Virus genome (UHGV): UHGV-0124967
Length of the DNA: 52,734 nt
Origin: a virus
Strand: one strand, 5' to 3'
Notes under the pieces: generated by a model
What the model was told of the DNA's origin: nothing
Databases searched by the model: none
The model's input: only the letters and a program-made list of their open reading frames with translations
Position numbers and translations under genes: made by a program
Shown: positions 8,608 to 43,456 of the stretch, one piece after another
Position numbering within the stretch: position 1 is the stretch's first letter
How the letters are laid out: each line of letters opens with the position of its first letter

Positions 8608-8661
8608 TTTCTCACCTTGTCATTCTGTGATCTGCGTCACGCTAAATCATACCAAAATGGA

Positions 8662-8690
8662 TTGATCGCGGTTTTTACAATATGTATATT
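8662..8690 (+). promoter_or_regulatory. putative sigma70 promoter for plus-strand moron operon
   Basis: TTGATC (8662-8667), 17-bp spacer, TATATT (8685-8690) with TG at 8683-8684; about 45 bp upstream of first moron gene. Confidence 0.45.
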
Positions 8691-9644: not shown

Positions 9645-9650
9645 TAATAA

Positions 9651-9677
9651 CCCCGCTTCTCGCGGGGTCGTGTTTAT
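9651..9677 (+). terminator. rho-independent terminator ending the plus-strand moron operon
   Basis: CCCCGC-TTCTC-GCGGGG hairpin followed by T-rich TCGTGTTTAT. Confidence 0.6.
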
Positions 9678-9874
9678 ACGCCATCAAGCAAAAACAAAAC
9701 TTCCTTCCCTTCTCTGGATCTGCACCCCACATACCCATCACCAACGTCGTGAAGATACCATATATCGCCATTATCAGCTTTTACAGCAAGGTCGTTGATC
9801 TCATAGTCATCAAACAATGTGAAAGCGTCAGTTTTGTCCACTACACAAGTCCCGTACATATTAACCACCATCAT
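9674..9874 (-). CDS. hypothetical protein, 66 aa, translationally coupled to M
   Basis: ATG at 9874..9872 overlaps the M stop (ATGA). Confidence 0.4.
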   Translation of the reverse strand: MMVVNMYGTCVVDKTDAFTLFDDYEINDLAVKADNGDIWYLHDVGDGYVGCRSREGKEVLFLLDGV

Positions 9875-10224
9875 CTAACAACTTGCTCAAACGTTGCGTT
9901 AAGCGTGTATACATGACCGTCTTTCGTCATACTCCAGCTACGGCAAACAAAAAGCCTTTGCACGCCATCCATCGACGGCGACCAGTAAAAAGCCTCGACA
10001 GCGCCGCGCGCCATCAAGAATGCTTCAGCCTGGATCGCCACGTTTCCACCATCACCGCATCCTGCGCTACTGCCTTTAAAGACCAGGGTGTAGCTGTCAA
10101 GCAATGTGTTGATCCCTTTCGCCTGGCGCTGTTCATAACCATCACCAAGTTTGACAACGGACACATTCGGTTCCCTGGTTACGCTGTAGCTTCGTTGCGG
10201 CGTCCATTTGAACACTTCCGGCAT
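9871..10224 (-). CDS. M: minor tail protein M
   Basis: 117 aa between tape measure and L; G-rich RBS. Confidence 0.75.
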   Translation of the reverse strand: MPEVFKWTPQRSYSVTREPNVSVVKLGDGYEQRQAKGINTLLDSYTLVFKGSSAGCGDGGNVAIQAEAFLMARGAVEAFYWSPSMDGVQRLFVCRSWSMTKDGHVYTLNATFEQVVR

Positions 10225-10285
10225 AAAACCCCCCCATAAGTTACATTTTGTATATATCTTTACGCGCTTCTACGCGAAAAATAAG

Positions 10286-10302
10286 ATCATTGTCACAATG
10301 AT
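10286..10302. promoter_or_regulatory. perfect palindrome ATCATTG-TCA-CAATGAT (possible operator)
   Basis: 7-3-7 inverted repeat between divergent M and plus-strand moron genes. Confidence 0.3.
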
Positions 10303-10324
10303 TATAGCTAGTTTACAAAATGGC

Positions 10325-10353
10325 TTCACATAGTACGCAACAAGATGTATATA
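10325..10353 (+). promoter_or_regulatory. putative promoter for plus-strand moron pair
   Basis: TTCACA (10325-10330), 17 bp, TG-n-TATATA (10346-10353); about 40 bp upstream of ATG 10394. Confidence 0.4.
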
Positions 10354-10393
10354 GAAAGCAAGAAGAAAGTAGTACCAACGAAGGAGGCCCAAA

Positions 10394-10549
10394 ATGAAAC
10401 GCTATGTAGTAGTAATGCTAAATAACGCATTCGAACAAGTGGAAATAGCAATCGTTAAGGGTTTCGACGACGCATTCAAATACGGTCAATTCATGATGAA
10501 TGCGAAAGAAGATGAATACCGGGACTTCTTCCTGAAGGCACTTAACTAA
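10394..10549 (+). CDS. hypothetical small protein, 51 aa (moron)
   Basis: ATG 10394 with AAGGAGG 6 nt upstream; below ORF-track cutoff. Confidence 0.45.
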   Translation: MKRYVVVMLNNAFEQVEIAIVKGFDDAFKYGQFMMNAKEDEYRDFFLKALN

Positions 10550-10566
10550 GGATGATGGGGTGAGTT

Positions 10567-10821
10567 ATGAAACTGGTAGCGATTGACAGAAATCTGAAAG
10601 CACAGAAAAACGCACATGACCGGATCATCAAGAAAGGTAAGGAATTACTTAAAGCCTTTCTGAGAAAAGAAGTTTACCCCAAAAAGTTACGCGACGGTTA
10701 CGGATACAAAATGGATATCAATCTTGATTGGAGGCTGTTTAGCGAAGATTTGAAGGTTTGGTTAATTGTTGAGCACCATGCCTATAACAAGTTATGTGGC
10801 GTGAAAGGCACTCATAAGTGA
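10567..10821 (+). CDS. hypothetical basic protein, 84 aa (moron)
   Basis: Track ORF; same strand directly downstream of 10394 gene. Confidence 0.5.
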   Translation: MKLVAIDRNLKAQKNAHDRIIKKGKELLKAFLRKEVYPKKLRDGYGYKMDINLDWRLFSEDLKVWLIVEHHAYNKLCGVKGTHK

Positions 10822-10874
10822 GTCGAGATATTCGAAAGGGGATATATCGCGCGGAATGGTCGTTTATAAATACG

Positions 10875-10913
10875 AAAAATAACCCCGGCATTGCACCGGG
10901 GTTTAGTTTATTT
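10875..10913. terminator. bidirectional rho-independent terminator
   Basis: CCCCGG-CATTGCA-CCGGGG hairpin (10883-10901) with A-run before and T-rich after; overlaps tape-measure stop. Confidence 0.65.
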
Positions 10914-13250
10914 GCGGCGAGGTTGCAACATTCCGCCTGGTCTTTGAGATTCCCTTGTTATCATTTTCATGGCTACACGTTCCATTGTTAATTCAAGTCT
11001 GCGGCTGTCTTCGTCGCTGAATCCGTTCGTGGTCTGAATGCTGATACTGACAGGCATACTAATACCGCCACCGCCGCCAATATCACGGCCCGGAATAACT
11101 CTGCCGTTCTCGCCAGGAATCATATATTGATTCCCGTTAGATGTCTGGAATAGCTCCGGCCTGTTGTGTTCCCCTACACGGTACATATTGCCACCAATGA
11201 CGCTACCACCATTAAAGCGACCGCCGCCAAAAATTGACGTAGCCAGCGACATGATCGCAGTGAGTGCCGCAGAACCAGCCGCCGCCCATGCGCCGCCAGT
11301 TGACGCCGCTGTTGCCGCCGCCGCCGGGGCCGCCGCCGCAGCAATCTGGCCTTGCGCCGCTACCGCGCCCGCCGTGGTACTTGCCTGAGTCGCTTTGCTT
11401 TGCGTTTCCATCATGATCTGATCTGCTATCCAGTTTGCAGCTATGTCTGAAAGCCTGTTACCGATATTCCCGAGGATATTGCTGCCTAAGTTAGCAAAAA
11501 CATCACTCAATGATTGAGTACCATTTAACAGGCCAACAAGTGCATTGCTCATACCACCTTTAAGGCCATTAACGCAATCACCGATAAGGCTGTTTGTGTC
11601 GCTTTGCGCCTGCCATTGCTCCCACTTCAGATCGCGGATCTGTTGCTCATAGGCTAACAGTTCCTGTTTCTGTTGCGCTTCCGTCACGCCCAGGTCGATA
11701 AGCATTTGCTTACGGACGGCCCATTCATTTTGAACCTGCTGAATAGGGTCTACTTCGCCCTTTAGCTGATCCATCGGGCTTACTATTTGCTCCCATTTGT
11801 CGCGCAATTCCTCTACCGGAATTTGTGCTAATTCTTCCTTTAGTTCCTTACCTATCCCTTTTTGCGCGGCGCGGTACTCAAGGAGAGTGATTTTACCCTG
11901 GGCGAATGCAGCATCAATGGCCTTGCCGCTCTCTAACGCTTTGCGCATAGCGGCGGCGTCTTTGTTGTACTGGTCAGAAACGCTTATACCTTTATCGCCA
12001 AGACGATCAGCTTCAGATTTCTTCTCTTTTTTCTGTTTTTTCGGTTTGTCTACTGGCTTGCCGGATCCGGTAATCGCTCCGTCATTGGCGGCATTCTGTT
12101 CATTTTTCCTTGCTTCTTCTGTAGCCTGGATTGCTGCGGTCAGATCATCCTGTAGTTGCATGACCTTGCCAACGGTCTTACCGTATTTCTTCTCGTAGTT
12201 GCTGTTATATTCGTCGGTTTGCTCTCCTACGACCTCCTTCATCCATTTGTAGGCATCCATTAGTGCCTTGATTGGCGTCACCATTGCGATGATCTTCTCG
12301 GCTACCTCGCCAGCCTTGATTCTGACATCTTCAAACATGTCGATGAATTCGCCACCAGCCGTCTTCAGGGTGTTAAAGCAGGTTTTAGCGAAATCAGCGC
12401 CTTCACTTAAAGCCTTAACACCTTTCGTTACAAGATCGATACCAGCAACAACCGTATCGGATACACCGAAAAGATCATCCAATTGCTCAACAAGTCCCAT
12501 AACCTCGACTTTAAGCTCATTCAGGGCCATGCCGGATGTGCGCGGCAACTGCGCAAACTTCTCGTTTGTTTCCTGCGTAGCCGCCTGGATTGCGTTAACC
12601 ATCCTTTCTGCCGTGATCTTACCGTCCAGCATTTCGGCGCGGAATTGGCCCATTGATAACCCCATCTGGCGTGCCATTGTCTGTACGATGGTCGGGGTGT
12701 TTTCTAACAGGCTGTTGAATTCTTCAGCACGCAACACGCCACCGTCGATAGACTGACGGAATTGACGCATTGAGTTTGACATCTGCTCCGCTGACGCGCC
12801 GCCCAACGCCCCCATTTTCTGAATCGTACCTACCAGGTTAAGCAATTGCCCTTCAGTGGCGGACGTGTTCTTCAGTGAGATAGCTAAGCCTTGCCACAGA
12901 TCCCCGGTATCCTTCATGCTTTGGCCTGTTTCTTTTGATATTGCTTTCAGGCCATCAAAAACCCGTCCGGCGGACTCCGCATCGCCCGTAAGCATTTTGA
13001 TTTTTACGCGAAGCATTTTTGCTTGCTCCGCCATATCCATAAATTGACGCACGGCCTCCGCAGCAATTAGCAAATGGATAACCCTGGTCAGTGCCTTGAT
13101 GGATGTTTTCAGGGTGTTTACCTGGCGGTCAGCCTGTTTTGCGCCGCGCTCTATACGCCCAAAGGCCTGGTCTGCCTGTCGTTGTGCAACGAGAAGTTGA
13201 CCAGTTTTCGCATCAACTTCGTAATAAATTGTACCTACACTGGTAGCCAT
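10908..13250 (-). CDS. H: tail tape measure protein
   Basis: 780 aa; alpha-helical Ala/Gln-rich body, Gly-rich C-terminus; between chaperone and M. Confidence 0.85.
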   Translation of the reverse strand: MATSVGTIYYEVDAKTGQLLVAQRQADQAFGRIERGAKQADRQVNTLKTSIKALTRVIHLLIAAEAVRQFMDMAEQAKMLRVKIKMLTGDAESAGRVFDGLKAISKETGQSMKDTGDLWQGLAISLKNTSATEGQLLNLVGTIQKMGALGGASAEQMSNSMRQFRQSIDGGVLRAEEFNSLLENTPTIVQTMARQMGLSMGQFRAEMLDGKITAERMVNAIQAATQETNEKFAQLPRTSGMALNELKVEVMGLVEQLDDLFGVSDTVVAGIDLVTKGVKALSEGADFAKTCFNTLKTAGGEFIDMFEDVRIKAGEVAEKIIAMVTPIKALMDAYKWMKEVVGEQTDEYNSNYEKKYGKTVGKVMQLQDDLTAAIQATEEARKNEQNAANDGAITGSGKPVDKPKKQKKEKKSEADRLGDKGISVSDQYNKDAAAMRKALESGKAIDAAFAQGKITLLEYRAAQKGIGKELKEELAQIPVEELRDKWEQIVSPMDQLKGEVDPIQQVQNEWAVRKQMLIDLGVTEAQQKQELLAYEQQIRDLKWEQWQAQSDTNSLIGDCVNGLKGGMSNALVGLLNGTQSLSDVFANLGSNILGNIGNRLSDIAANWIADQIMMETQSKATQASTTAGAVAAQGQIAAAAAPAAAATAASTGGAWAAAGSAALTAIMSLATSIFGGGRFNGGSVIGGNMYRVGEHNRPELFQTSNGNQYMIPGENGRVIPGRDIGGGGGISMPVSISIQTTNGFSDEDSRRLELTMERVAMKMITRESQRPGGMLQPRRK

Positions 13251-13303
13251 GATTTAACCTCATGCAAAAATGTGATCTGTGTATCTATTTTATACAAAAT
13301 GGC

Positions 13304-13332
13304 TTTACTTCAACGACTACATTTTGTATAAA
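13304..13332 (+). promoter_or_regulatory. putative promoter for lipoprotein moron
   Basis: TTTACT (13304-13309), 17 bp, TG-n-TATAAA (13324-13332); partner inverted copy at 13291-13302 faces tape measure. Confidence 0.45.
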
Positions 13333-13377
13333 GAAGCCAAAGGGAATGGTCAGTAAATCAAGTTAGCGAGGTGGGTT

Positions 13378-14037
13378 ATGAAACGGTTAGCAAAAGTGGC
13401 AATGATTGCGGCGGTATTGGGTCTGGTTGGTTGCAATGAGGATAATGAAAAAGCGCCTATAGTGACCACTCAAGAACAACAAGCATTAGCAGAGAAAAAT
13501 GCTAAATGGCTTGCAGAACAACAAGCAAAACAAGCCGCATATGAGGCACAGTTAGCAAAAGAAAAAGCTGGTAAACAGTGGCTTGTGGTCGAAAGAAAAG
13601 ATGATATGCAGGACACAAAAAACGTGTTCCTTTTCGTGAAAGCAGAACATTTCAGCGGAAGTCTTGATGCTTTCCCTACACTGAAAGCACGGGATGAAAA
13701 CAAACCTGTATTAACAATCGCTTGCCAGGGTAATAAAACAAAAATGTTCGTAGCATGGTCAAACCATGTAACTGACGCTGGGGACACTACTTATATTAAC
13801 TACCGGATCGGCGATCACAAAGCTGTAGCTACTGAATGGAGTCGGTCAACTAACTATAAAGCTCTTGGATTATGGAACGGCAAAAAAGCCATTCCAATGA
13901 TTAAAAAACTGGTTAACGAAAAACAATTTATCATTGAAGTAGTGCCGGAAGCTGGCGACATTGAGAAAGCAGTGTTTAACATTGATGGTCTTTATAACCA
14001 CATCGACAAAGTGAAAAACGCTTGCAACTGGAATTAA
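13378..14037 (+). CDS. lipoprotein, 219 aa (tail-region moron), function unknown
   Basis: ATG 13378 with GAGGTGG RBS; signal peptide with lipobox LVGC; coiled-coil-like segment; AT-rich compared with neighbours. Confidence 0.7.
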   Translation: MKRLAKVAMIAAVLGLVGCNEDNEKAPIVTTQEQQALAEKNAKWLAEQQAKQAAYEAQLAKEKAGKQWLVVERKDDMQDTKNVFLFVKAEHFSGSLDAFPTLKARDENKPVLTIACQGNKTKMFVAWSNHVTDAGDTTYINYRIGDHKAVATEWSRSTNYKALGLWNGKKAIPMIKKLVNEKQFIIEVVPEAGDIEKAVFNIDGLYNHIDKVKNACNWN

Positions 14038-14046
14038 GGGTGAAAC

Positions 14047-14367
14047 ATGAAACGCGATGAATGGATGAGAAAATGGGAACATAAACAAGTAGCATATAAT
14101 CGCAAGATGAACCGCGAATTTGACTTCGGTGTCGCAGAGCGTGATTGTGGGTATAAAGGAAATCTAAATGGTGCATATGTTCAACATGTTGGCGATAAAC
14201 AGTATTATTACATTGTCAACTTCAACCATGTATTGCACGCAGATCTGGTTGTTATTGATGGGAAAACAAAAATAGTAGCGAATAAACGCATTAATAAGAA
14301 CGCAGCAATCAATATATTAACAGTGATTCGCACCCAGATGAATGTGCTTTACGAAAAAATAGCATAA
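14047..14367 (+). CDS. hypothetical protein, 106 aa, co-transcribed with lipoprotein
   Basis: ATG 14047, 7 nt after lipoprotein stop, AAGGGTGA RBS. Confidence 0.55.
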   Translation: MKRDEWMRKWEHKQVAYNRKMNREFDFGVAERDCGYKGNLNGAYVQHVGDKQYYYIVNFNHVLHADLVVIDGKTKIVANKRINKNAAINILTVIRTQMNVLYEKIA

Positions 14368-14380
14368 GCGAACTTAACAA

Positions 14381-14409
14381 AAACGCCCGGATCTACCGGG
14401 CTTTTTCTT
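14381..14409. terminator. bidirectional rho-independent terminator
   Basis: GCCCGG-ATCTA-CCGGGC followed by T5CTT; the minus-strand chaperone stop sits in the loop. Confidence 0.65.
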
Positions 14410-17401: not shown

Positions 17402-17419
17402 TTTGTTTTCTCCACATAC

Positions 17420-17447
17420 AAAAAAAATCCCCGGCATTGCGCCGGGG
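17420..17447 (-). terminator. hairpin terminator/attenuator after major capsid gene
   Basis: CCCCGGC-ATTGC-GCCGGGG followed on minus strand by T8; near-identical stem to 10883-10901. Confidence 0.65.
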
Positions 17448-17466: not shown

Positions 17467-18531
17467 TCAGATATTGCTGCCGTAGACCACTCCTGAACGA
17501 CCTTTCATGTCACGGGTGATTTGCAGACCCTCAGCGGACATGATGCGGAAGTTGTAGTTATCAGTCGGCATCATGCGCGGTAACGGTACAACACCAGTAG
17601 TCATACCAATCAGCGGGGTAATTACGCTACGGCTGCGCTGATAAGCAATGAACTCGTTGCCGGACAATGCATAGCTCTGGCGAATCTCACCAACCGGAGC
17701 GAACGGCATAATGACGCTCAGCACGCTACCAACTACAGCACCATTGACGATGTGCGGACGGGCCAGGTTAGCCATGATCTCAGGCGATACCCACATGACG
17801 TCGTATTTAGCTACGAAGTTGGCGCGAGCCAGCTTGCCGAACTCACCAACGGTGAAGAAGTCAATGATCTTGTCGAAACCCACAGTAGGCAGGTCGACTT
17901 TTGCGACGGTTTTTAGTTTAAGCTGCTGGGTGCTTTTGTGGTTTTTAATACCCATAGCTTTATGACCATCAACCACGATGCGATCGTTACCATTCAGGTA
18001 GAACTGGACGCGTGCTTTGTTGAATTTTTTCAGTTTCAGGCGCTGACTATCCAGGGCAAGGTCGATGCCTACAGTACTCAAGCCCTGAGCGAGACGCCAG
18101 TTAACACCGTAACCAGCCGCGAACATCGGGATCGGGTCGCCATCGCTATCGTATTCGGTGTGATCAAAGCCGTGTGGCGCTTGACCATCCATAGACATCA
18201 CAACTTCATCATTGATGTCACCGGATACGTTGTACATTTTCAGCGTTTTACCGACTGGCAGTACGGTTTGCACACCCATCAGGTCGTTTACGATCTCAAT
18301 ACCGATTTCTTCGGTGTTCAGTTCGATAATCTGGTTATCGATTTCTTTCCAGAATTCTTTTGCGAAGCCGCCGACGGCGTTACAGGCCAACATTTCAGCG
18401 GTCATATTTGCCTGATTTGCTGCAATCATGGCGTTGTGCTGCGCGTTGAAGATATTGCGTTGCGCCCACAGTTCTTTCCAATGGCCCTGCATACGGGCGT
18501 TGGTGGCAAGGTTTTCTTTTGTAAAGTACAT
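17467..18531 (-). CDS. major capsid protein
   Basis: 354 aa between decoration and neck genes, followed by attenuator. Confidence 0.7.
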   Translation of the reverse strand: MYFTKENLATNARMQGHWKELWAQRNIFNAQHNAMIAANQANMTAEMLACNAVGGFAKEFWKEIDNQIIELNTEEIGIEIVNDLMGVQTVLPVGKTLKMYNVSGDINDEVVMSMDGQAPHGFDHTEYDSDGDPIPMFAAGYGVNWRLAQGLSTVGIDLALDSQRLKLKKFNKARVQFYLNGNDRIVVDGHKAMGIKNHKSTQQLKLKTVAKVDLPTVGFDKIIDFFTVGEFGKLARANFVAKYDVMWVSPEIMANLARPHIVNGAVVGSVLSVIMPFAPVGEIRQSYALSGNEFIAYQRSRSVITPLIGMTTGVVPLPRMMPTDNYNFRIMSAEGLQITRDMKGRSGVVYGSNI

Positions 18532-21231: not shown

Positions 21232-22543
21232 CGTTTTCCTCTTCCAGTTCTACCTCACTAGCCGGGCCATTATATCCGGCAGCTTCGCGGATCTCGTCAC
21301 CGCTGAATATTTCCTCACCAGTAGCGAGACATGCCTGATTGATTTGTGCCATTTTGTATGCCGCGTCGAGTAGCTCTGCTTTTGTCATGGCGTTAAGGTC
21401 GTCCCACAGTACAGATACGTCTACTGGCATACTGATAAGGCGGAGATCTGCCATCTTGAGGAATAGCTCCTCAAGCTCGCCTCCTATTTCCTCACGGCGG
21501 GTCATGCAGCGGTTATTGAAGTAGCGGAGGTCTTCGGTTGATGCGCGTTCGCCCTGCTGATTCCCAACCAGGATACGCGTTGGAATATCGATACCAGCGG
21601 CTGCGGTTTGCAGGTTGACGTCATAGGTAGCGGAAGGATCTGCTACGGCAGTAACCAGCGGGCTAACGGTAGCTCCCTGTAATGCCATCATCACATCATT
21701 ACCTTTATTTATATCCTCTGCCGCTTCATTGAATTTTTCGCGTAGCTCTGTAACGTCGCAACCGTATGTTGCAGCCAGAGAACGGAAATCAATTTCTTTA
21801 TCGAACGAGATAGCCAGTTGACGTGCTGCGTTTTTCAGGAATGATTCACCGCTGCCGCCTTCCACTTTCTCCAGCGAAACGAATGCGTTATAGGACGGTT
21901 CAAGGAAGGCGATGGCATCATCAGAATAGTCGCCAAAGATAAATATGCGATCGGGATGTATCTTTCTTGCTATGGCCTTACTGTTAATGCGCTCCTTGTA
22001 TTCCCACCATGTCGGCAGGCCATAGTTTTCATTATCCGGGTTTTCTTCGAAGTCCTTCGGTGTAAGAGCACCAGCCCATACAGGGGTAAATTTGGCAATG
22101 CCTACACCTTTTGTTACTGGCTGATCCCACGGCTTGTTATCCCTGACGTGAATTAACAGTCCAGCATAACGACCGATGAGGCGGCGGCGATCGCATTCAG
22201 CTATGACGCGCCAGAAACGATTATCAAATTGTTTTTTGATTTCTCTTTCCCACGATGTTTCATTTTCCGCTTTCTCGTCTTCCGTACCTTCAATCAGCGT
22301 TGGCCTGGTGCGCCAGCACGTAGTAATGATCTTCTCAATAGCACCGTGAGCGATACCACCGCGACGATACAGTTTGTATAAATCGGCATAGGTGATTTCT
22401 TCTTTGAATCCGTATTCACTCCACGCAGCATCACGTTTTGCATCAATACCCATTGAGAATGGGTTAGCAGCTGCATAGCGGGCAAAGGCCGCCTGGCGTT
22501 GAGACAAGGCAGCATTAACCGCCAATTCTAAATTGGATGGCAT
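21173..22543 (-). CDS. portal protein
   Basis: ATG 22543 with AGGAG RBS (track ORF starts 22564); acidic C-terminus; between TerL and head morphogenesis gene. Confidence 0.7.
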   Translation of the reverse strand: MPSNLELAVNAALSQRQAAFARYAAANPFSMGIDAKRDAAWSEYGFKEEITYADLYKLYRRGGIAHGAIEKIITTCWRTRPTLIEGTEDEKAENETSWEREIKKQFDNRFWRVIAECDRRRLIGRYAGLLIHVRDNKPWDQPVTKGVGIAKFTPVWAGALTPKDFEENPDNENYGLPTWWEYKERINSKAIARKIHPDRIFIFGDYSDDAIAFLEPSYNAFVSLEKVEGGSGESFLKNAARQLAISFDKEIDFRSLAATYGCDVTELREKFNEAAEDINKGNDVMMALQGATVSPLVTAVADPSATYDVNLQTAAAGIDIPTRILVGNQQGERASTEDLRYFNNRCMTRREEIGGELEELFLKMADLRLISMPVDVSVLWDDLNAMTKAELLDAAYKMAQINQACLATGEEIFSGDEIREAAGYNGPASEVELEEENDDESEEDNQANTSSRDNAI

Positions 22544-22691
22544 AATGTTTACTCCTGAATACATGTTTACGCGTTGCTACGCGAAAAATAGAAAAACTTG
22601 TGGGGGATTGTGAGACAGATTTTATGTAGCCAATTGAGAATTATTCTTGTTCATCTTCGAAAATTTTTCGAAGTTGATAATAATCAATAAC

Positions 22692-28536: not shown

Positions 28537-28617
28537 TTTTCTACCCTCCGCATCGTTCTCTCTTCAGCTTCTTTATAACAAAATGGCACTGCCGAAACAA
28601 TGCCATTTCGTAAACCT

Positions 28618-28633
28618 TGTGATACAGATCACA
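28618..28633. promoter_or_regulatory. CRP-consensus-like palindrome TGTGA-N6-TCACA
   Basis: TGTGATACAGATCACA; adjacent to inverted repeat AAATGGCA...TGCCATTT (28582-28608). Confidence 0.35.
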
Positions 28634-28634
28634 T

Positions 28635-28859
28635 TTACGTTTCTTCCGTAAAAGTAACCTTCATCGCCCCATCCGAACTACGGACAACATAACGACCAAT
28701 ACCGCCTAGCGGCCCTGCATACCATAAGTGACCGTAAGTGTCAGTCACGACGATAAACGGAAATTTAGGAGACAATCCCATCGGTTTTTCAGCCGTATAC
28801 TGTGCGCCTTCTTCAAAACAGCCTAATTTCGATTCGTTACACGTTAAAATCATTTTCAT
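28635..28859 (-). CDS. small protein, paralogue family member A (74 aa)
   Basis: Shares F..G.IY...D..G.LW.F-type pattern with the next three genes. Confidence 0.55.
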   Translation of the reverse strand: MKMILTCNESKLGCFEEGAQYTAEKPMGLSPKFPFIVVTDTYGHLWYAGPLGGIGRYVVRSSDGAMKVTFTEET

Positions 28860-32305: not shown

Positions 32306-32501
32306 CCTTCACCTCGCGACGATAGATTTCTACTGGCTTAACCGGAATAGCGTTAAAATCACCTTCATCCAGTGCGGCAATAAACGTTAGCGCCAACCGT
32401 GCTTCAACACCGCTTAAATACTTGCACCATGCCTCACCGTTATAATCTTTAAAAAGAATAATCACTTTTTCATGTTTATCTCTTGTTGTTTCATTATTCA
32501 C
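32295..32501 (-). CDS. hypothetical protein, 68 aa, non-ATG (GTG) start
   Basis: No in-frame ATG; begins at GTG overlapping the Q stop. Confidence 0.4.
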   Translation of the reverse strand: MNNETTRDKHEKVIILFKDYNGEAWCKYLSGVEARLALTFIAALDEGDFNAIPVKPVEIYRREVKDEA

Positions 32502-33216
32502 CCCGTGTCACTCGTTTAATTTCGTTATCAGCCCGCGCCTCTTCTTTGAACAATTCAGTAATGGCGTCTTCATAGAAAGCACGGTATTTCTTCCACCACG
32601 TTGATCGGCTTACCGGAAATACAAGCTGATTAACCGCACGCCGGACAAGATCTACAGGGAAACGCGAGTACCCGCGCCCGCCGCAATGCTGGCACGTTTT
32701 GAACACTGGCATTTCCGCTGCTTCACTGGCTGCTTTATCCGGTATCTCGCCGCGCCCTTTGCATCGTTTACAATGATTGCGAACTTTTCCATGCCCCTTG
32801 CATTTTTTGCAAAGGTGTTTTTCTCCGTAGTCGTCAAACGTAAATTTATATCCGCCGCAATCCATACAAGTTTTTTCTGTCGCGGCACTCTGGCAGTAAT
32901 CCCGAAACGCGAAAACGGCAACAAGAATAATAAGATCATTGCGTTTGTCCTCGTCCAACTCCATGACGTATTCGTAATCTTTTGCCATAGCTCTTAAACG
33001 CTCTGTAAGCAAAACTACGGCCCTGTGTTTTTCGGCTTGCGATAATTCCATCTTCCCTAAAAAAGCGCTATAACCAAGCTCTACGCGCGATTGCGCCATA
33101 CCTGCTGCGGTTAGTGCATCAGTAGTATTAAGCGAGTCTGGGGACGTGCCCCGGCTTTCATCTGACAAACGCGGTGATTTTGGGAAGTGGAATTTAAGAA
33201 TAGATTCCAAATTCAT
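32494..33216 (-). CDS. Q: late-gene antitermination protein Q (zinc-finger type)
   Basis: 240 aa; four CxxCxGxG repeats; follows RusA and a small gene as in nin regions. Confidence 0.65.
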   Translation of the reverse strand: MNLESILKFHFPKSPRLSDESRGTSPDSLNTTDALTAAGMAQSRVELGYSAFLGKMELSQAEKHRAVVLLTERLRAMAKDYEYVMELDEDKRNDLIILVAVFAFRDYCQSAATEKTCMDCGGYKFTFDDYGEKHLCKKCKGHGKVRNHCKRCKGRGEIPDKAASEAAEMPVFKTCQHCGGRGYSRFPVDLVRRAVNQLVFPVSRSTWWKKYRAFYEDAITELFKEEARADNEIKRVTRGE

Positions 33217-34595: not shown

Positions 34596-34754
34596 AATGC
34601 TCCCTCCCTTTAAGGTGATTTCTACGCATTTCAGCGCTGCCGGATTTTTAAAGAGCATTTCGTTTGCTTGAAGTATACAAAATGGATACACGTAAACAAG
34701 ACGAAAAGCGCCATTATGTGACCTGTATCACACAATGACGCCATTTTGTAAACT

Positions 34755-37906: not shown

Positions 37907-38322
37907 GCCTCACCTCATATGGTATTCAATAAACCACCTAATAAACAGGCATAAGGCAATAAAACACCAGCAACAGCACATATAAAACAATGTGTCGTCC
38001 ATAATTAAGCCTCAATAACACCATAATCAAACGTGCCTAAATACTGTTCGATACTTACAACCTCAATACCATCAATGCACCGTTTCTACACAGACACCCT
38101 GCTTTCATTTTCCCGGAAGTGCATATTAGAAAGCACTTCATCGGCTGGATAGCCTTTCCCAGCGACGTAGGCATCGAGACCTACTCCACCCTCAACACAA
38201 TAAAGCATTAATTCGCTGGCCATCTTGTTTTCCTCCGCGCCGTAAACCTTTTGATTTCAGTTCACAAAACGGATTCGCGATCACAACACAAAATGTATTT
38301 TTATGTGATCGCCATCACTATG

Positions 38323-42003: not shown

Positions 42004-42465
42004 AATCTGATCTCCGTATATCCTTGATAAAAATTAATAAAAATCATCTTCGTTAATTGCCGCACTTCCAGCGGCTGACCAGATTGTTAATGAGCGGCTT
42101 AACATCTTTCAACTAATCCCGCAATCATCGCCGTTCCCGGCGTGACCTTGCTCACTCCAAGCAAGCTGACTCGTCGCCTTGCGTGCGGTTTCGTGGGGGA
42201 TGTAACGCTTTAAACACCCCATGCGCCTTGTTATCAGTGCCGCTTTCGGTCCCCCATCGGGGAGTTACTCCACGGTTGACAAGGTGTTAAGCCTGATTTT
42301 TAAAGTGCCAGGAAGTTGCTTTTGTTACCTGCGACCTTCCTTTGACTCGCAATATACGCCCCGTAAAACATCGAGTCAATCCATTTTGTATACTTTTTTA
42401 AAATATTTTATATGCTATTGATATTTAAACAATAAATAACGTTTTCTGTTTACGTTTTGGCGTTT

Positions 42466-42502: not shown

Positions 42503-43150
42503 TTATGGCAGGTTTACGATCTTCGCATCAACCACCACGCCTATAATTTTTGATTCTGGATTCATAGGGATTGGCGGATACAGCGGATTGAGCGAACGTA
42601 AAAGCCTTTGACCTCCATCAATAATCAACTGTTTAAACGTCGGTATCTGCCATTCCTCAAGCTGGGCTATAACCAGTTTGCCGTCAATAGCTGGCGCGTG
42701 CGGGTCAACAAGTATCATCGTCCCCGCCGGGATGCTCAACCCCTGCGGCGCGTTCATTGATTCACCTTTGGCAACCAGCCAGTAACTGTCATCTGAACAA
42801 ATAACGCTAGTCGTAACGTGTCGTAATGCTGAACGCCTTGCGTCATCCATATTGTTTACTGTGTCCTTCCAGTCAATAACCGGGTAACTACCTAAATCAC
42901 GCGGCGGCACAGCCTGAAGTGTATTAGAAACAGAATCATCAATGACCATACCATCATGTGTAACAGTGAACTGCCGACGACCAAGCTCTCGCATAATCCG
43001 CGCAATATCTTCAAGATTTGGCTCGCGGCGACCGTTCAGCCAGTGTGACAGGTCGCCTTTAGTTATCCCCATGCGATCCGCTAGTGAATCCTGGCTCATG
43101 CCCTGCGCCCGCATGAGCTGCTTTGCTAAGTCATACCATTTTGTTTTCAT
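42503..43150 (-). CDS. CI-like repressor (HTH plus S24 LexA-like self-cleaving domain)
   Basis: 215 aa; N-terminal HTH (QDSLADRMGITKGDLSHWLNGRR), C-terminal GESM...K pattern. Confidence 0.85.
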   Translation of the reverse strand: MKTKWYDLAKQLMRAQGMSQDSLADRMGITKGDLSHWLNGRREPNLEDIARIMRELGRRQFTVTHDGMVIDDSVSNTLQAVPPRDLGSYPVIDWKDTVNNMDDARRSALRHVTTSVICSDDSYWLVAKGESMNAPQGLSIPAGTMILVDPHAPAIDGKLVIAQLEEWQIPTFKQLIIDGGQRLLRSLNPLYPPIPMNPESKIIGVVVDAKIVNLP

Positions 43151-43210
43151 GTCGCTACCCTATAACCTCAAAAAAGTTTGATGCAAGTCACAAAACGTGT
43201 ATTTTAAGCC

Positions 43211-43238
43211 TTGATCTTAAAATTCCATTTTGTAAACT
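43211..43238 (+). promoter_or_regulatory. putative rightward early promoter (pR-like)
   Basis: TTGATC (43211-43216), 16 bp, TG-n-TAAACT (43231-43238); followed by palindromes. Confidence 0.45.
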
Positions 43239-43275
43239 TGCAGACAAGGTAAGGCCATACTTGCAAAGACGCAAG
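43237..43275. promoter_or_regulatory. candidate operator palindromes
   Basis: CTTGCAGACAAG (43237-43248) and CTTGCAAAGACGCAAG (43260-43275); similar GCAAG/CTTGC half-sites at 42161-42183. Confidence 0.35.
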
Positions 43276-43456
43276 GAAAAAGATAACGGAAGGCACAAAA
43301 AGGCACTTACCTTAAGCTCTTTAAAAATCCGGTGTCGCTGCGAAGCGAAAAACAAATATCACGCAACGGCGGGATCTGTTGAGCGGTCAGTCACTGCTAT
43401 CTAATGCTAATGGGATGCCCGCCCGCGCGTTCACTCTAACCATAGGAGAAAACACG

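Follow-up and report, generated by a model that had tools for sequence, protein, structure and literature searches.

The DNA analysed here, a 52,734-nucleotide stretch of the virus genome UHGV-0124967 (hereafter the window), belongs to a temperate coliphage or prophage of the mEp021-like (mEpimmI) group, with its tail genes on the minus strand. Between its tape-measure gene (10908..13250, minus strand, stop codon at 10908-10910) and the gene for a homologue of lambda gpM (M; 9871..10224, minus strand, about 30% identity to lambda M), with L, K, I and J further down, a small unit is read in the opposite direction, and the question that this locus raises is what such a unit is doing inside a tail operon. 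We found that it consists of a predicted promoter, two genes encoding proteins of 51 and 84 amino acids (p51 and p84) and a bidirectional terminator, that it is fixed in the phage family, and that p84, as modelled, falls in the RelE/ParE superfamily. The best available reading, to which we assign a probability of about one half, is that p84 is a toxin-like effector, with p51 as its usual partner, carried in an autonomous moron.

An insertion fixed at the tape-measure/M junction

The preliminary description of this DNA had claimed two small plus-strand genes at the junction, and both open reading frames (ORFs) are indeed present, namely, p51 (10394..10549, homologue of mEp021_68) and p84 (10567..10821, homologue of mEp021_67). 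It had also taken the unit for an opposite-strand insertion, which is borne out by its composition, by its own conserved promoter and terminator, and by the outgroups. The GC content of the unit is 0.39 to 0.42, versus 0.48 to 0.60 in the flanks, and the GC skew changes sign; in the nearest outgroup, Salmonella phage Oslo, whose M is 66.7% identical, the gap between tape measure and M is 2 nucleotides (nt), and in the records of the lambda-related phages HK630 and 434 and of Gifsy-2, the match to M falls under both the M and the tape-measure annotations. Since the outgroup junctions lack the unit, its GC content is low and its skew is reversed, we consider it an insertion relative to the ancestral tail module.

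The comparison covered 43 related loci gathered from annotated phages, E. coli genomes and IMG/VR, together with 43 more that were later gathered via p51. The junction region matches mEp554, mEp010, mEp044, MagusPhagus, mEp021, mEp013 and mEp515 with 78 to 87% nucleotide identity, and prophages matching it occur in 34 of 5,426 complete E. coli genomes. Throughout the relatives examined, the p51 and p84 genes occupy this same junction, and among these relatives the same genes were not found elsewhere as core genes; the insertion is fixed in the mEp021-like phage family. The sole paper on the mEpimmI family (PMC11893012) describes these phages as being as prevalent as lambdoid phages in the human faecal sample collection of origin, and it contains no discussion of the p51 and p84 genes, of the control regions and promoters, or of the repeated element D9 considered below. 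One locus (L032) carries an extra insert of about 490 nt between the M start and D9 (intergenic region of 661 nt versus about 172 nt), and therefore the junction has been hit by insertion more than once.

In kind, the region is an accessory "moron" transcription unit of a known type. It has a terminator and a promoter of its own, the latter with sequence blocks conserved in 36 unique sequences and a predicted activity, and it combines a deviating composition with absence from the same junction in related phages, as the GC values, phage Oslo and the lambda-like records indicate.

Two genes constrained as strongly as a tail gene

The p51 gene is preceded, 6 nt before its ATG, by the Shine-Dalgarno sequence GAAGGAGG (10380..10387, plus strand), which is kept among the relatives as AAGGAGG or AAGGGGG; p84 follows after a gap of 17 nt, and each gene has a Shine-Dalgarno sequence of its own. 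The ORFs are intact in 41/41 loci for p51 and in 44/44 for p84, with no pseudogenes, and the ratio of non-synonymous to synonymous substitution rates (dN/dS) is 0.059 for p51 and 0.065 for p84, next to 0.066 for the structural gene M. Both p51 and p84 are real genes, constrained as strongly as the tail gene M.

p84 and the RelE/ParE superfamily

The p84 protein matches the Pfam family PF24732 (ParE_like) with an E value of 9e-12 and 45.3 bits (gathering cutoff, 24.4) over residues 19 to 75; the Pfam model is covered nearly whole, the same domain occurs in all relatives, and the RefSeq name of close relatives is already "ParE family toxin-like protein." The family is narrow by sequence, since an exhaustive profile search returned only 10 representatives at E < 1e-3. 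In the literature searched there was no mention of PF24732, and no experimental function was found. Furthermore, PADLOC and NCBIfam searches of the cassette proteins gave no match, and searches of the Protein Data Bank (PDB) with p84 or p51, both as single sequences and as profiles, gave no credible match.

A first AlphaFold model of p84, built from close relatives only, had a predicted local distance difference test (pLDDT) score of 53 and meaningless Foldseek hits, and it was superseded by a model from a deeper alignment that includes distant members (26 to 52% identity), for which the pLDDT is 86.4. The latter presents the compact alpha/beta fold of the RelE/ParE superfamily, in which an antiparallel sheet packs against the N-terminal helix, with the topology beta-beta-alpha-beta-beta-beta-alpha, and its best Foldseek matches are YoeB (probability 0.97), YafQ, HP0894, HigB, ParE2 and RelK; among the PDB structural matches, HigB, RelE, YafQ and YoeB rank above ParE. 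Judged from this model, p84 is a RelE/ParE-superfamily protein that appears structurally nearer to the mRNA interferases than to the gyrase poisons.

In particular, K40, L41, R56 and H70 are invariant in the p84 family, in members down to 26% identity, and Y/F73 and N74 are nearly invariant. By eye, we aligned the segment KKLR...WRL...H(H)xxYN to the active-site segments of RelE and YoeB, an alignment without statistical support in which the presumed counterparts are K52/R61/R81/Y87 of RelE and R65/H83/Y84 of YoeB; the profile alignments (hhalign, p84 profile against the E. coli RelE and YoeB sequences) were not significant, with E values of 0.17 and 0.065, respectively. Because this active-site comparison is statistically unsupported, p84 is classed here to the RelE/ParE superfamily only.

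Distant PF24732 relatives (26 to 33% identity to p84) were noticed at loci L044 to L049, where they lie in long runs of small same-strand genes on contigs of up to 101 kb; the neighbouring small genes have no Pfam hits, and one adjoins a ParA-like gene. This distribution suggests that the PF24732 family is widespread as a small effector of phages or plasmids.

A predicted promoter preceded by a CRP-like dyad

The promoter-like TTCACA-17-TGtATATA of the preliminary description could be recognized as part of a rightward module, TACAAAATGG-c-TTCACA(-35)-17 nt-TATATA(-10), at 10314..10353 on the plus strand, with the -35 hexamer at 10325-10330, the -10 hexamer at 10348-10353, a 17-nt spacer and a start predicted at about 10360. 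Both hexamers and their spacing are conserved in 36 unique relatives; the promoter is absent from the consensus scan listing because its -10 hexamer has no final T. The alignment of the 36 unique intergenic sequences contains four conserved blocks, namely, D9, TCACAA..ATTATA, AGTTTACAAAATGGCTTCAC (which holds the -35) and CAAGATGTATAYAG (which holds the -10).

Upstream of this promoter, at 10282..10297, the sequence TAAGA-TCATTG-TCACA (TAAGATCATTGTCACA), centred at about -70.5 from the predicted start, matches TGTGA-N6-TCACA at 8/10 positions in the window. The site occurs at a fixed aligned position in 36/36 unique relatives, 22 of them at 9/10 (TGAGA-N6-TCACA) and 14 at 8/10, and its N6 varies freely; the probability that a random 44-mer holds a best match of at least 9 is 0.001. 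By its pattern, this conserved site is a CRP-like dyad, a predicted binding site for which host CRP is the most economical candidate factor. Since the dyad precedes the promoter, cassette expression is probably tied to cyclic AMP (cAMP)-CRP or a similar dimeric factor.

Between dyad and promoter, ATTATA (10303..10308) is invariant in the 36 unique sequences, and it may serve the rightward promoter as an AT-rich upstream element, or a leftward promoter towards M as its -10 hexamer. The latter is possible because ATTATA reads TATAAT on the minus strand, where the -35 hexamer that would fit it matches the consensus at only 3/6 positions (GTGAAG).

The terminator and the distal part of the cassette

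The unit ends at a bidirectional intrinsic terminator, AACCCCGG-n-CCGGGGTT (10881..10903, both strands), which on the minus strand forms a 9-bp stem followed by AUUUUUCGUAUUU (-16.3 kcal/mol) and on the plus strand, more weakly, an 8-bp stem followed by UUUAGUUUAUUU. A bidirectional hairpin overlapping the tape-measure stop had been described earlier; its bidirectional, terminator-like character stands, but the stem ends 4 nt before the stop codon, and only the plus-strand T-tract overlaps it. The stretch 10870-10901 is 88% identical over 32 nt to a terminator at 17416-17447, which lies after the 354-amino-acid ORF 17467..18531, presumably the major capsid gene, and other bidirectional terminators flank the remaining insertions (9649-9669 and 14385-14401). 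In this phage, terminators look like reused modules.

Between p84 and the terminator, the window retains the remnant of a third cassette gene (10840..10869, plus strand), which reads GYIARNGRL and then a stop, with no start codon. The relatives have a 30-amino-acid ORF ending in ...YIARNGRL directly 3' of p84, of which the window keeps the tail only, and in them as many as four additional small genes can follow p84, so that the window represents the minimal form. Across loci L001 to L043, the spacer from p84 to the tape-measure stop ranges from 83 to 1473 nt and is mosaic in content. Its recurring extras are the 30-amino-acid ORF (MEDDKFTWREIWNIW...), ORFs of 56 to 58 and of 59 to 61 amino acids, and a probable membrane protein of 95 amino acids. 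In addition, mEp021 has a 158-amino-acid zinc-ribbon repeat protein and another ORF.

p51 and the toxin-antitoxin question

The p51 protein matches phrog_29810 only, a family of unknown function, and it was found only in mEp021-like phages; it is an orphan protein. As in type II toxin-antitoxin systems, the small gene stands beside the toxin-like gene in a bicistronic operon with one promoter and one terminator. The order p51-p84 was observed in 43/43 loci, p51 never occurs without p84, and the two genes are adjacent in about 93% of the loci.

Several observations weigh against the reading of p51 as the partner of a p84 toxin. Searches of Pfam, NCBIfam, PADLOC and PDB returned nothing for p51, in which neither an antitoxin fold nor a DNA-binding fold can be recognised, and the cassette as a whole has no PADLOC hit. 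Three loci, L004 (E. coli UMNK88), L018 and L020, keep an intact p84 with p51 cleanly absent, so that in UMNK88 and two IMG/VR contigs p84 sits directly behind the promoter; in this p51-less lineage, p84 shows 7 synonymous versus 2 non-synonymous codon differences. A p84 that stays constrained without p51 is the opposite of what is predicted for a lethal toxin with an obligatory antitoxin. Moreover, p51 is more conserved than p84 and has been shuffled against it by recombination, 65 of 175 locus pairs with identical p51 having p84 proteins of less than 85% identity, and the distant PF24732 members lie in long co-directional arrays of small genes, with no p51 homologue, rather than in two-gene modules. 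As for expression, the -10 hexamer deviates from the canonical final T, and the start at 10360 is a predicted one.

Because an intact, constrained p84 persists in the p51-less lineage, the cassette departs from a defining feature of type II systems, in which a toxin is not kept without its cognate antitoxin. Likewise, it has no antitoxin of a known class, no antitoxin DNA-binding domain and no conserved operator, the palindrome discussed below being unconserved and at -74 to -58. Some antitoxins, for example PaaA2, also have no DNA-binding domain, and the missing domain in p51 is thus not decisive. The classical toxin-antitoxin interpretation of the pair is weakened.

It is possible, even so, to propose how the cassette would work. 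The ancestor of the mEp021-like (mEpimmI) coliphages would have acquired a moron between tape measure and M, and the moron would have become fixed there. Transcription would run rightward from a sigma-70 promoter, antisense to the late tail operon and probably under host cAMP-CRP or another dimeric helix-turn-helix factor of that specificity; the transcript would encode p51 and p84 and stop at the bidirectional terminator, which would also halt the tape-measure transcripts unless they are antiterminated, a Q-family antiterminator being encoded at 32494..33216. The effector would be p84, a small, very basic protein of RelE/ParE fold closest to the ribosome-dependent mRNA endonucleases, which most likely would act from the prophage as a toxin-like inhibitor of translation or mRNA (for example, in abortive infection, exclusion or prophage retention), and p51 would be its usual yet dispensable neutralising or modulating partner.

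The D9 element upstream of M and of the portal gene

The element that we call D9 lies upstream of M (10249..10283, minus strand), with a core at 10259-10281 that on the late strand reads TTTTTCGCGTAGAAGCGCGTAAA (TTTTTCGCGTAGnnnCGCGTAAA), and a second copy lies upstream of the portal gene (22556-22590), 86% identical over 35 nt. A 25-bp element shared with the region upstream of the portal gene had been pointed out before; at 35 nt it is longer, and it is much more significant than had been supposed, the 23-nt core having exactly 2 matches in the window versus 0.01 expected. In IMG/VR, many mEp021-like contigs give two D9 stretches, as would be expected if each genome has two copies, and no contig sampled for D9 looks other than mEp021-like.

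The alignments show almost no variation in D9. One copy precedes the ribosome-binding site of M and the other that of the portal gene, each by about 25 nt and in the same orientation, and the portal copy and its flanks hardly change while the neighbouring terminase codons do. A GC stem of 4 to 5 bp with an AGnn loop can form in D9, which also contains TACGCG as a direct repeat with a 10-bp phase; the stem contains two substitutions only, with 171/175 cells paired as minus-strand RNA versus 140/175 for the plus strand. Rfam searches of the whole window and of the junction region gave no match. Our leading guess, from position and pairing pattern, is that D9 may be a leader element of late mRNAs.

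An additional nut/boxB site was considered for D9 and is unsupported: the element lies downstream of the terminator that would need to be overridden, and the family paper gives three nut sites only, all in early operons (PMC11893012). At the portal gene, the program-called start (22564) falls inside the D9 copy, and the true start is probably the ATG at 22542, which is preceded by AGGAG. After the terminase stop, the window and the relatives closest to it have an additional insert of about 70 nt, which most relatives do not have and which holds the perfect AT-rich palindrome CTTCGAAAATTTTTCGAAG (22655-22673).

Weighing the alternatives

The p84 protein might instead be a stand-alone RelE-fold effector of the phage, acting for example in host takeover or anti-defence at infection or induction, with p51 as an unrelated accessory protein that happens to share the operon, and we regard this as a real, if minority, possibility. 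It would readily accommodate the retention and constraint of p84 without p51, the unpaired distant family members in arrays that resemble early regions of lytic phages, and the weak co-evolution of p51 and p84 (Spearman 0.36), and it fits a promoter architecture held in common with the strong promoter at 42353-42390, which lies a short way downstream of the repressor gene. It sits less easily with a p51 that never occurs without p84 and is nearly always adjacent to it, with a cassette whose anatomy is that of a classical prophage-expressed moron, antisense to the late genes, and with a p84 that in structure most closely matches bona fide type II toxins. Doubtful as a full account, but compatible with the reading of p84 and p51 as effector and partner, is the proposal that the conserved blocks of non-coding sequence act chiefly on behalf of the late minus strand, through a leftward TATAAT promoter (10308 to 10303) and a D9 hairpin in the leader of the M-L-K-I-J mRNA, as likewise upstream of the portal gene, which would restart or stabilise late expression past the terminator. 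The invariance of the minus-strand TATAAT, the strong minus-strand terminator directly after the tape measure, the like placement and orientation of both D9 copies before ribosome-binding sites, the fact that both stem substitutions keep G-U pairing only in minus-strand RNA, and a portal copy that is more conserved, with its flanks, than the adjacent coding sequence all argue for it. However, the minus-strand -35 hexamer is poor, no comparable promoter lies upstream of the portal copy in the majority of relatives, whose terminase stop codon directly adjoins D9, a Q-family antiterminator makes restart promoters unnecessary, and Rfam gave no match; since the stem is almost invariant, it shows no real covariation either, which also counts against this proposal.

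A further proposal concerns the perfect 8-1-8 palindrome ATCATTGTCACAATGAT at 10286..10302, whose left part overlaps the right half of the CRP-like dyad. The palindrome is present and perfect, as had been described, but it did not hold up as a regulatory element, since it is lineage-specific: it is perfect in only 6 unique sequences, those of the window's sub-lineage, its left arm is variable in the alignment, and the other 30 unique relatives have 4-6/8 arm matches, which is the chance level. Perfect 8-1-8 palindromes number 4 in the window, where block-shuffled windows average 0.84 (P(>=1)=0.57), so that chance alone would supply such sequences in DNA of this length. The palindrome is a lineage-specific accident over a less obvious conserved site. 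That it would be an operator through which a prophage repressor, an antitoxin or a host factor controls the cassette is suggested by its perfection and its position upstream of the promoter, and toxin-antitoxin operons are often autoregulated through palindromes; yet at -74 to -58 it overlaps neither the -35 nor the -10 hexamer, and the repeats between repressor and cro differ from it (CTTGC...GCAAG type). We consider this role very improbable, the comparative data having largely refuted it. In the intergenic region between the CI-like repressor gene (42503..43150) and the divergent gene (43190-43300, minus-strand reading), the repeats CTTGCGTCTTTGCAAG, CTTGTCTGCAAG and GACTTGCATC are better candidates for CI-like repressor operators. 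Finally, it is tempting, though unlikely, to go further and suppose that p84 represents a class of solo RelE-fold effectors, CRP-switched from morons via a shared module and with p51 as an optional modulator, and that the D9 hairpin is a new cis-acting RNA element for portal and tail-tip genes.

Related promoters, dyads and insertions in the window

The geometry AAAATGG-N24-TATA of the cassette promoter recurs exactly at 8654(+), 10317(+), 13296(+) and 42353(-), and it is common to the three tail-region insertions that run on the opposite strand. Similar promoters, built as (T)ACAAAATGG-n-[-35]-17-[-10], occur at 8654-8688(+), 10317-10351(+), 13296-13330(+) and 42353-42387(-), with weaker members at 28580-28614(+) and 13291-13325(-); the one at 42353-42390(-), just downstream of the CI-like repressor gene, is near consensus (TTGACT-17-TATATT). 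As a stand-alone operator, TACAAAATGG was rejected, its 24 hits (5.8 expected) being heterogeneous, with several of them in start-codon contexts or coding sequence, and an inverted upstream copy at 10243-10252 is not conserved; we reread the motif as the upstream part of the promoter module.

The promoter at 8.6 kb is also accompanied by a dyad, TGTGA-N6-TCACG, which all relatives retain around a spacer that varies, and the window holds 6 matches to the CRP core with at most one mismatch versus 1.5 expected (1692-1707, 8626-8641, 28618-28633, 34717-34732, 38304-38319 and 43177-43192). Those viewed in context lie in non-coding control regions, and the ones at 28618 and 34717 are perfect. Over some 80 nt, visible homology links the control region of the 13.3-kb insertion with that of a minus-strand gene at about 28.5 kb (13262-13340 and 28540-28640, minus strand), both reading AAATGTGATCTGT...TAC(A/G)AAATGGC...CATTTTGT(A)TATAAAGAAGC, and both contain an inverted pair of ACAAAATGG 26 nt apart.

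The insertion upstream of the tape measure encodes, at 13378-14037(+), a lipoprotein-like protein of 219 amino acids with an N-terminal ...LVGC lipobox and a type VI secretion VasI domain (PF11319, E 1.7e-16), followed at 14047-14367(+) by a 106-amino-acid protein with no family.

Comparison with known systems

Like the type II toxins of YoeB-YefM, RelBE, HigBA, YafQ-DinJ and ParDE, p84 lies in the range of about 84 to 95 amino acids and is strongly basic; its predicted fold best matches the RelE/ParE toxins, and in those systems, too, a small gene precedes the toxin gene within one operon. The relBE genes of E. coli K-12 also lie in a cryptic prophage (Qin). Different from these toxins, p84 has no sequence-level hit to any solved toxin, and the N-terminal part of its model is a beta-hairpin and one helix instead of two helices; p51, for its part, is sometimes missing and has neither an antitoxin fold nor a DNA-binding fold of a known kind, and no conserved operator lies over the promoter. 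The PF24732 name "ParE_like" implies a gyrase poison, whereas mRNA interferases outrank ParE in the structural comparison of p84. A further parallel is offered by the PaaR-PaaA-ParE modules of E. coli O157:H7, which are prophage-borne and pair a toxin of ParE/RelE fold with a very short partner that has no DNA-binding domain; the cassette is likewise prophage-borne, joins a RelE/ParE-fold protein to a very short partner, and has ParE2-PaaA2 among the structural matches of p84.

Class I CRP-dependent promoters have sites at -61.5 and -71.5, and malT has one at -70.5. The cassette dyad resembles these in its TGTGA-N6-TCACA type, conserved pentamers, free spacer and position at about -70.5 from the predicted start, and similar dyads lie upstream of the sister promoters; it differs in that the window's own dyad is only 8/10 (TAAGA) and that the sister site at 8.6 kb lies near -63.5, off phase.

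Phage morons, such as lom and bor of lambda and the HK97-type morons of the tail region, have been reviewed in "The moron comes of age" (PMC3594210). Like them, the cassette is an independent promoter-gene-terminator unit inside a late operon, on the opposite strand and with lower GC content, and it is missing from related phages at the same junction. Unlike them, it is not sporadic, being present in every family member examined and constrained like a structural gene, and only its distal content varies.

Significance

The moron is ordinary in kind, and the toxin-like label of p84 is already in public annotation. What is modestly new is a toxin-like gene that tolerates the loss of its partner, a shared promoter module under putative CRP-like control, and a conserved element present twice per genome. 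The natural p51-less lineage is a ready-made case for asking whether RelE-fold proteins of phages always need an antitoxin, and the shared promoter module with its CRP-like sites suggests that several accessory genes may respond jointly to the nutritional state of the host. A toxin-like gene that is strongly constrained and that all of the mEp021-like phages keep within their tail operon could plausibly determine how fit lysogens are, whether other phages are excluded or whether the prophage is retained.

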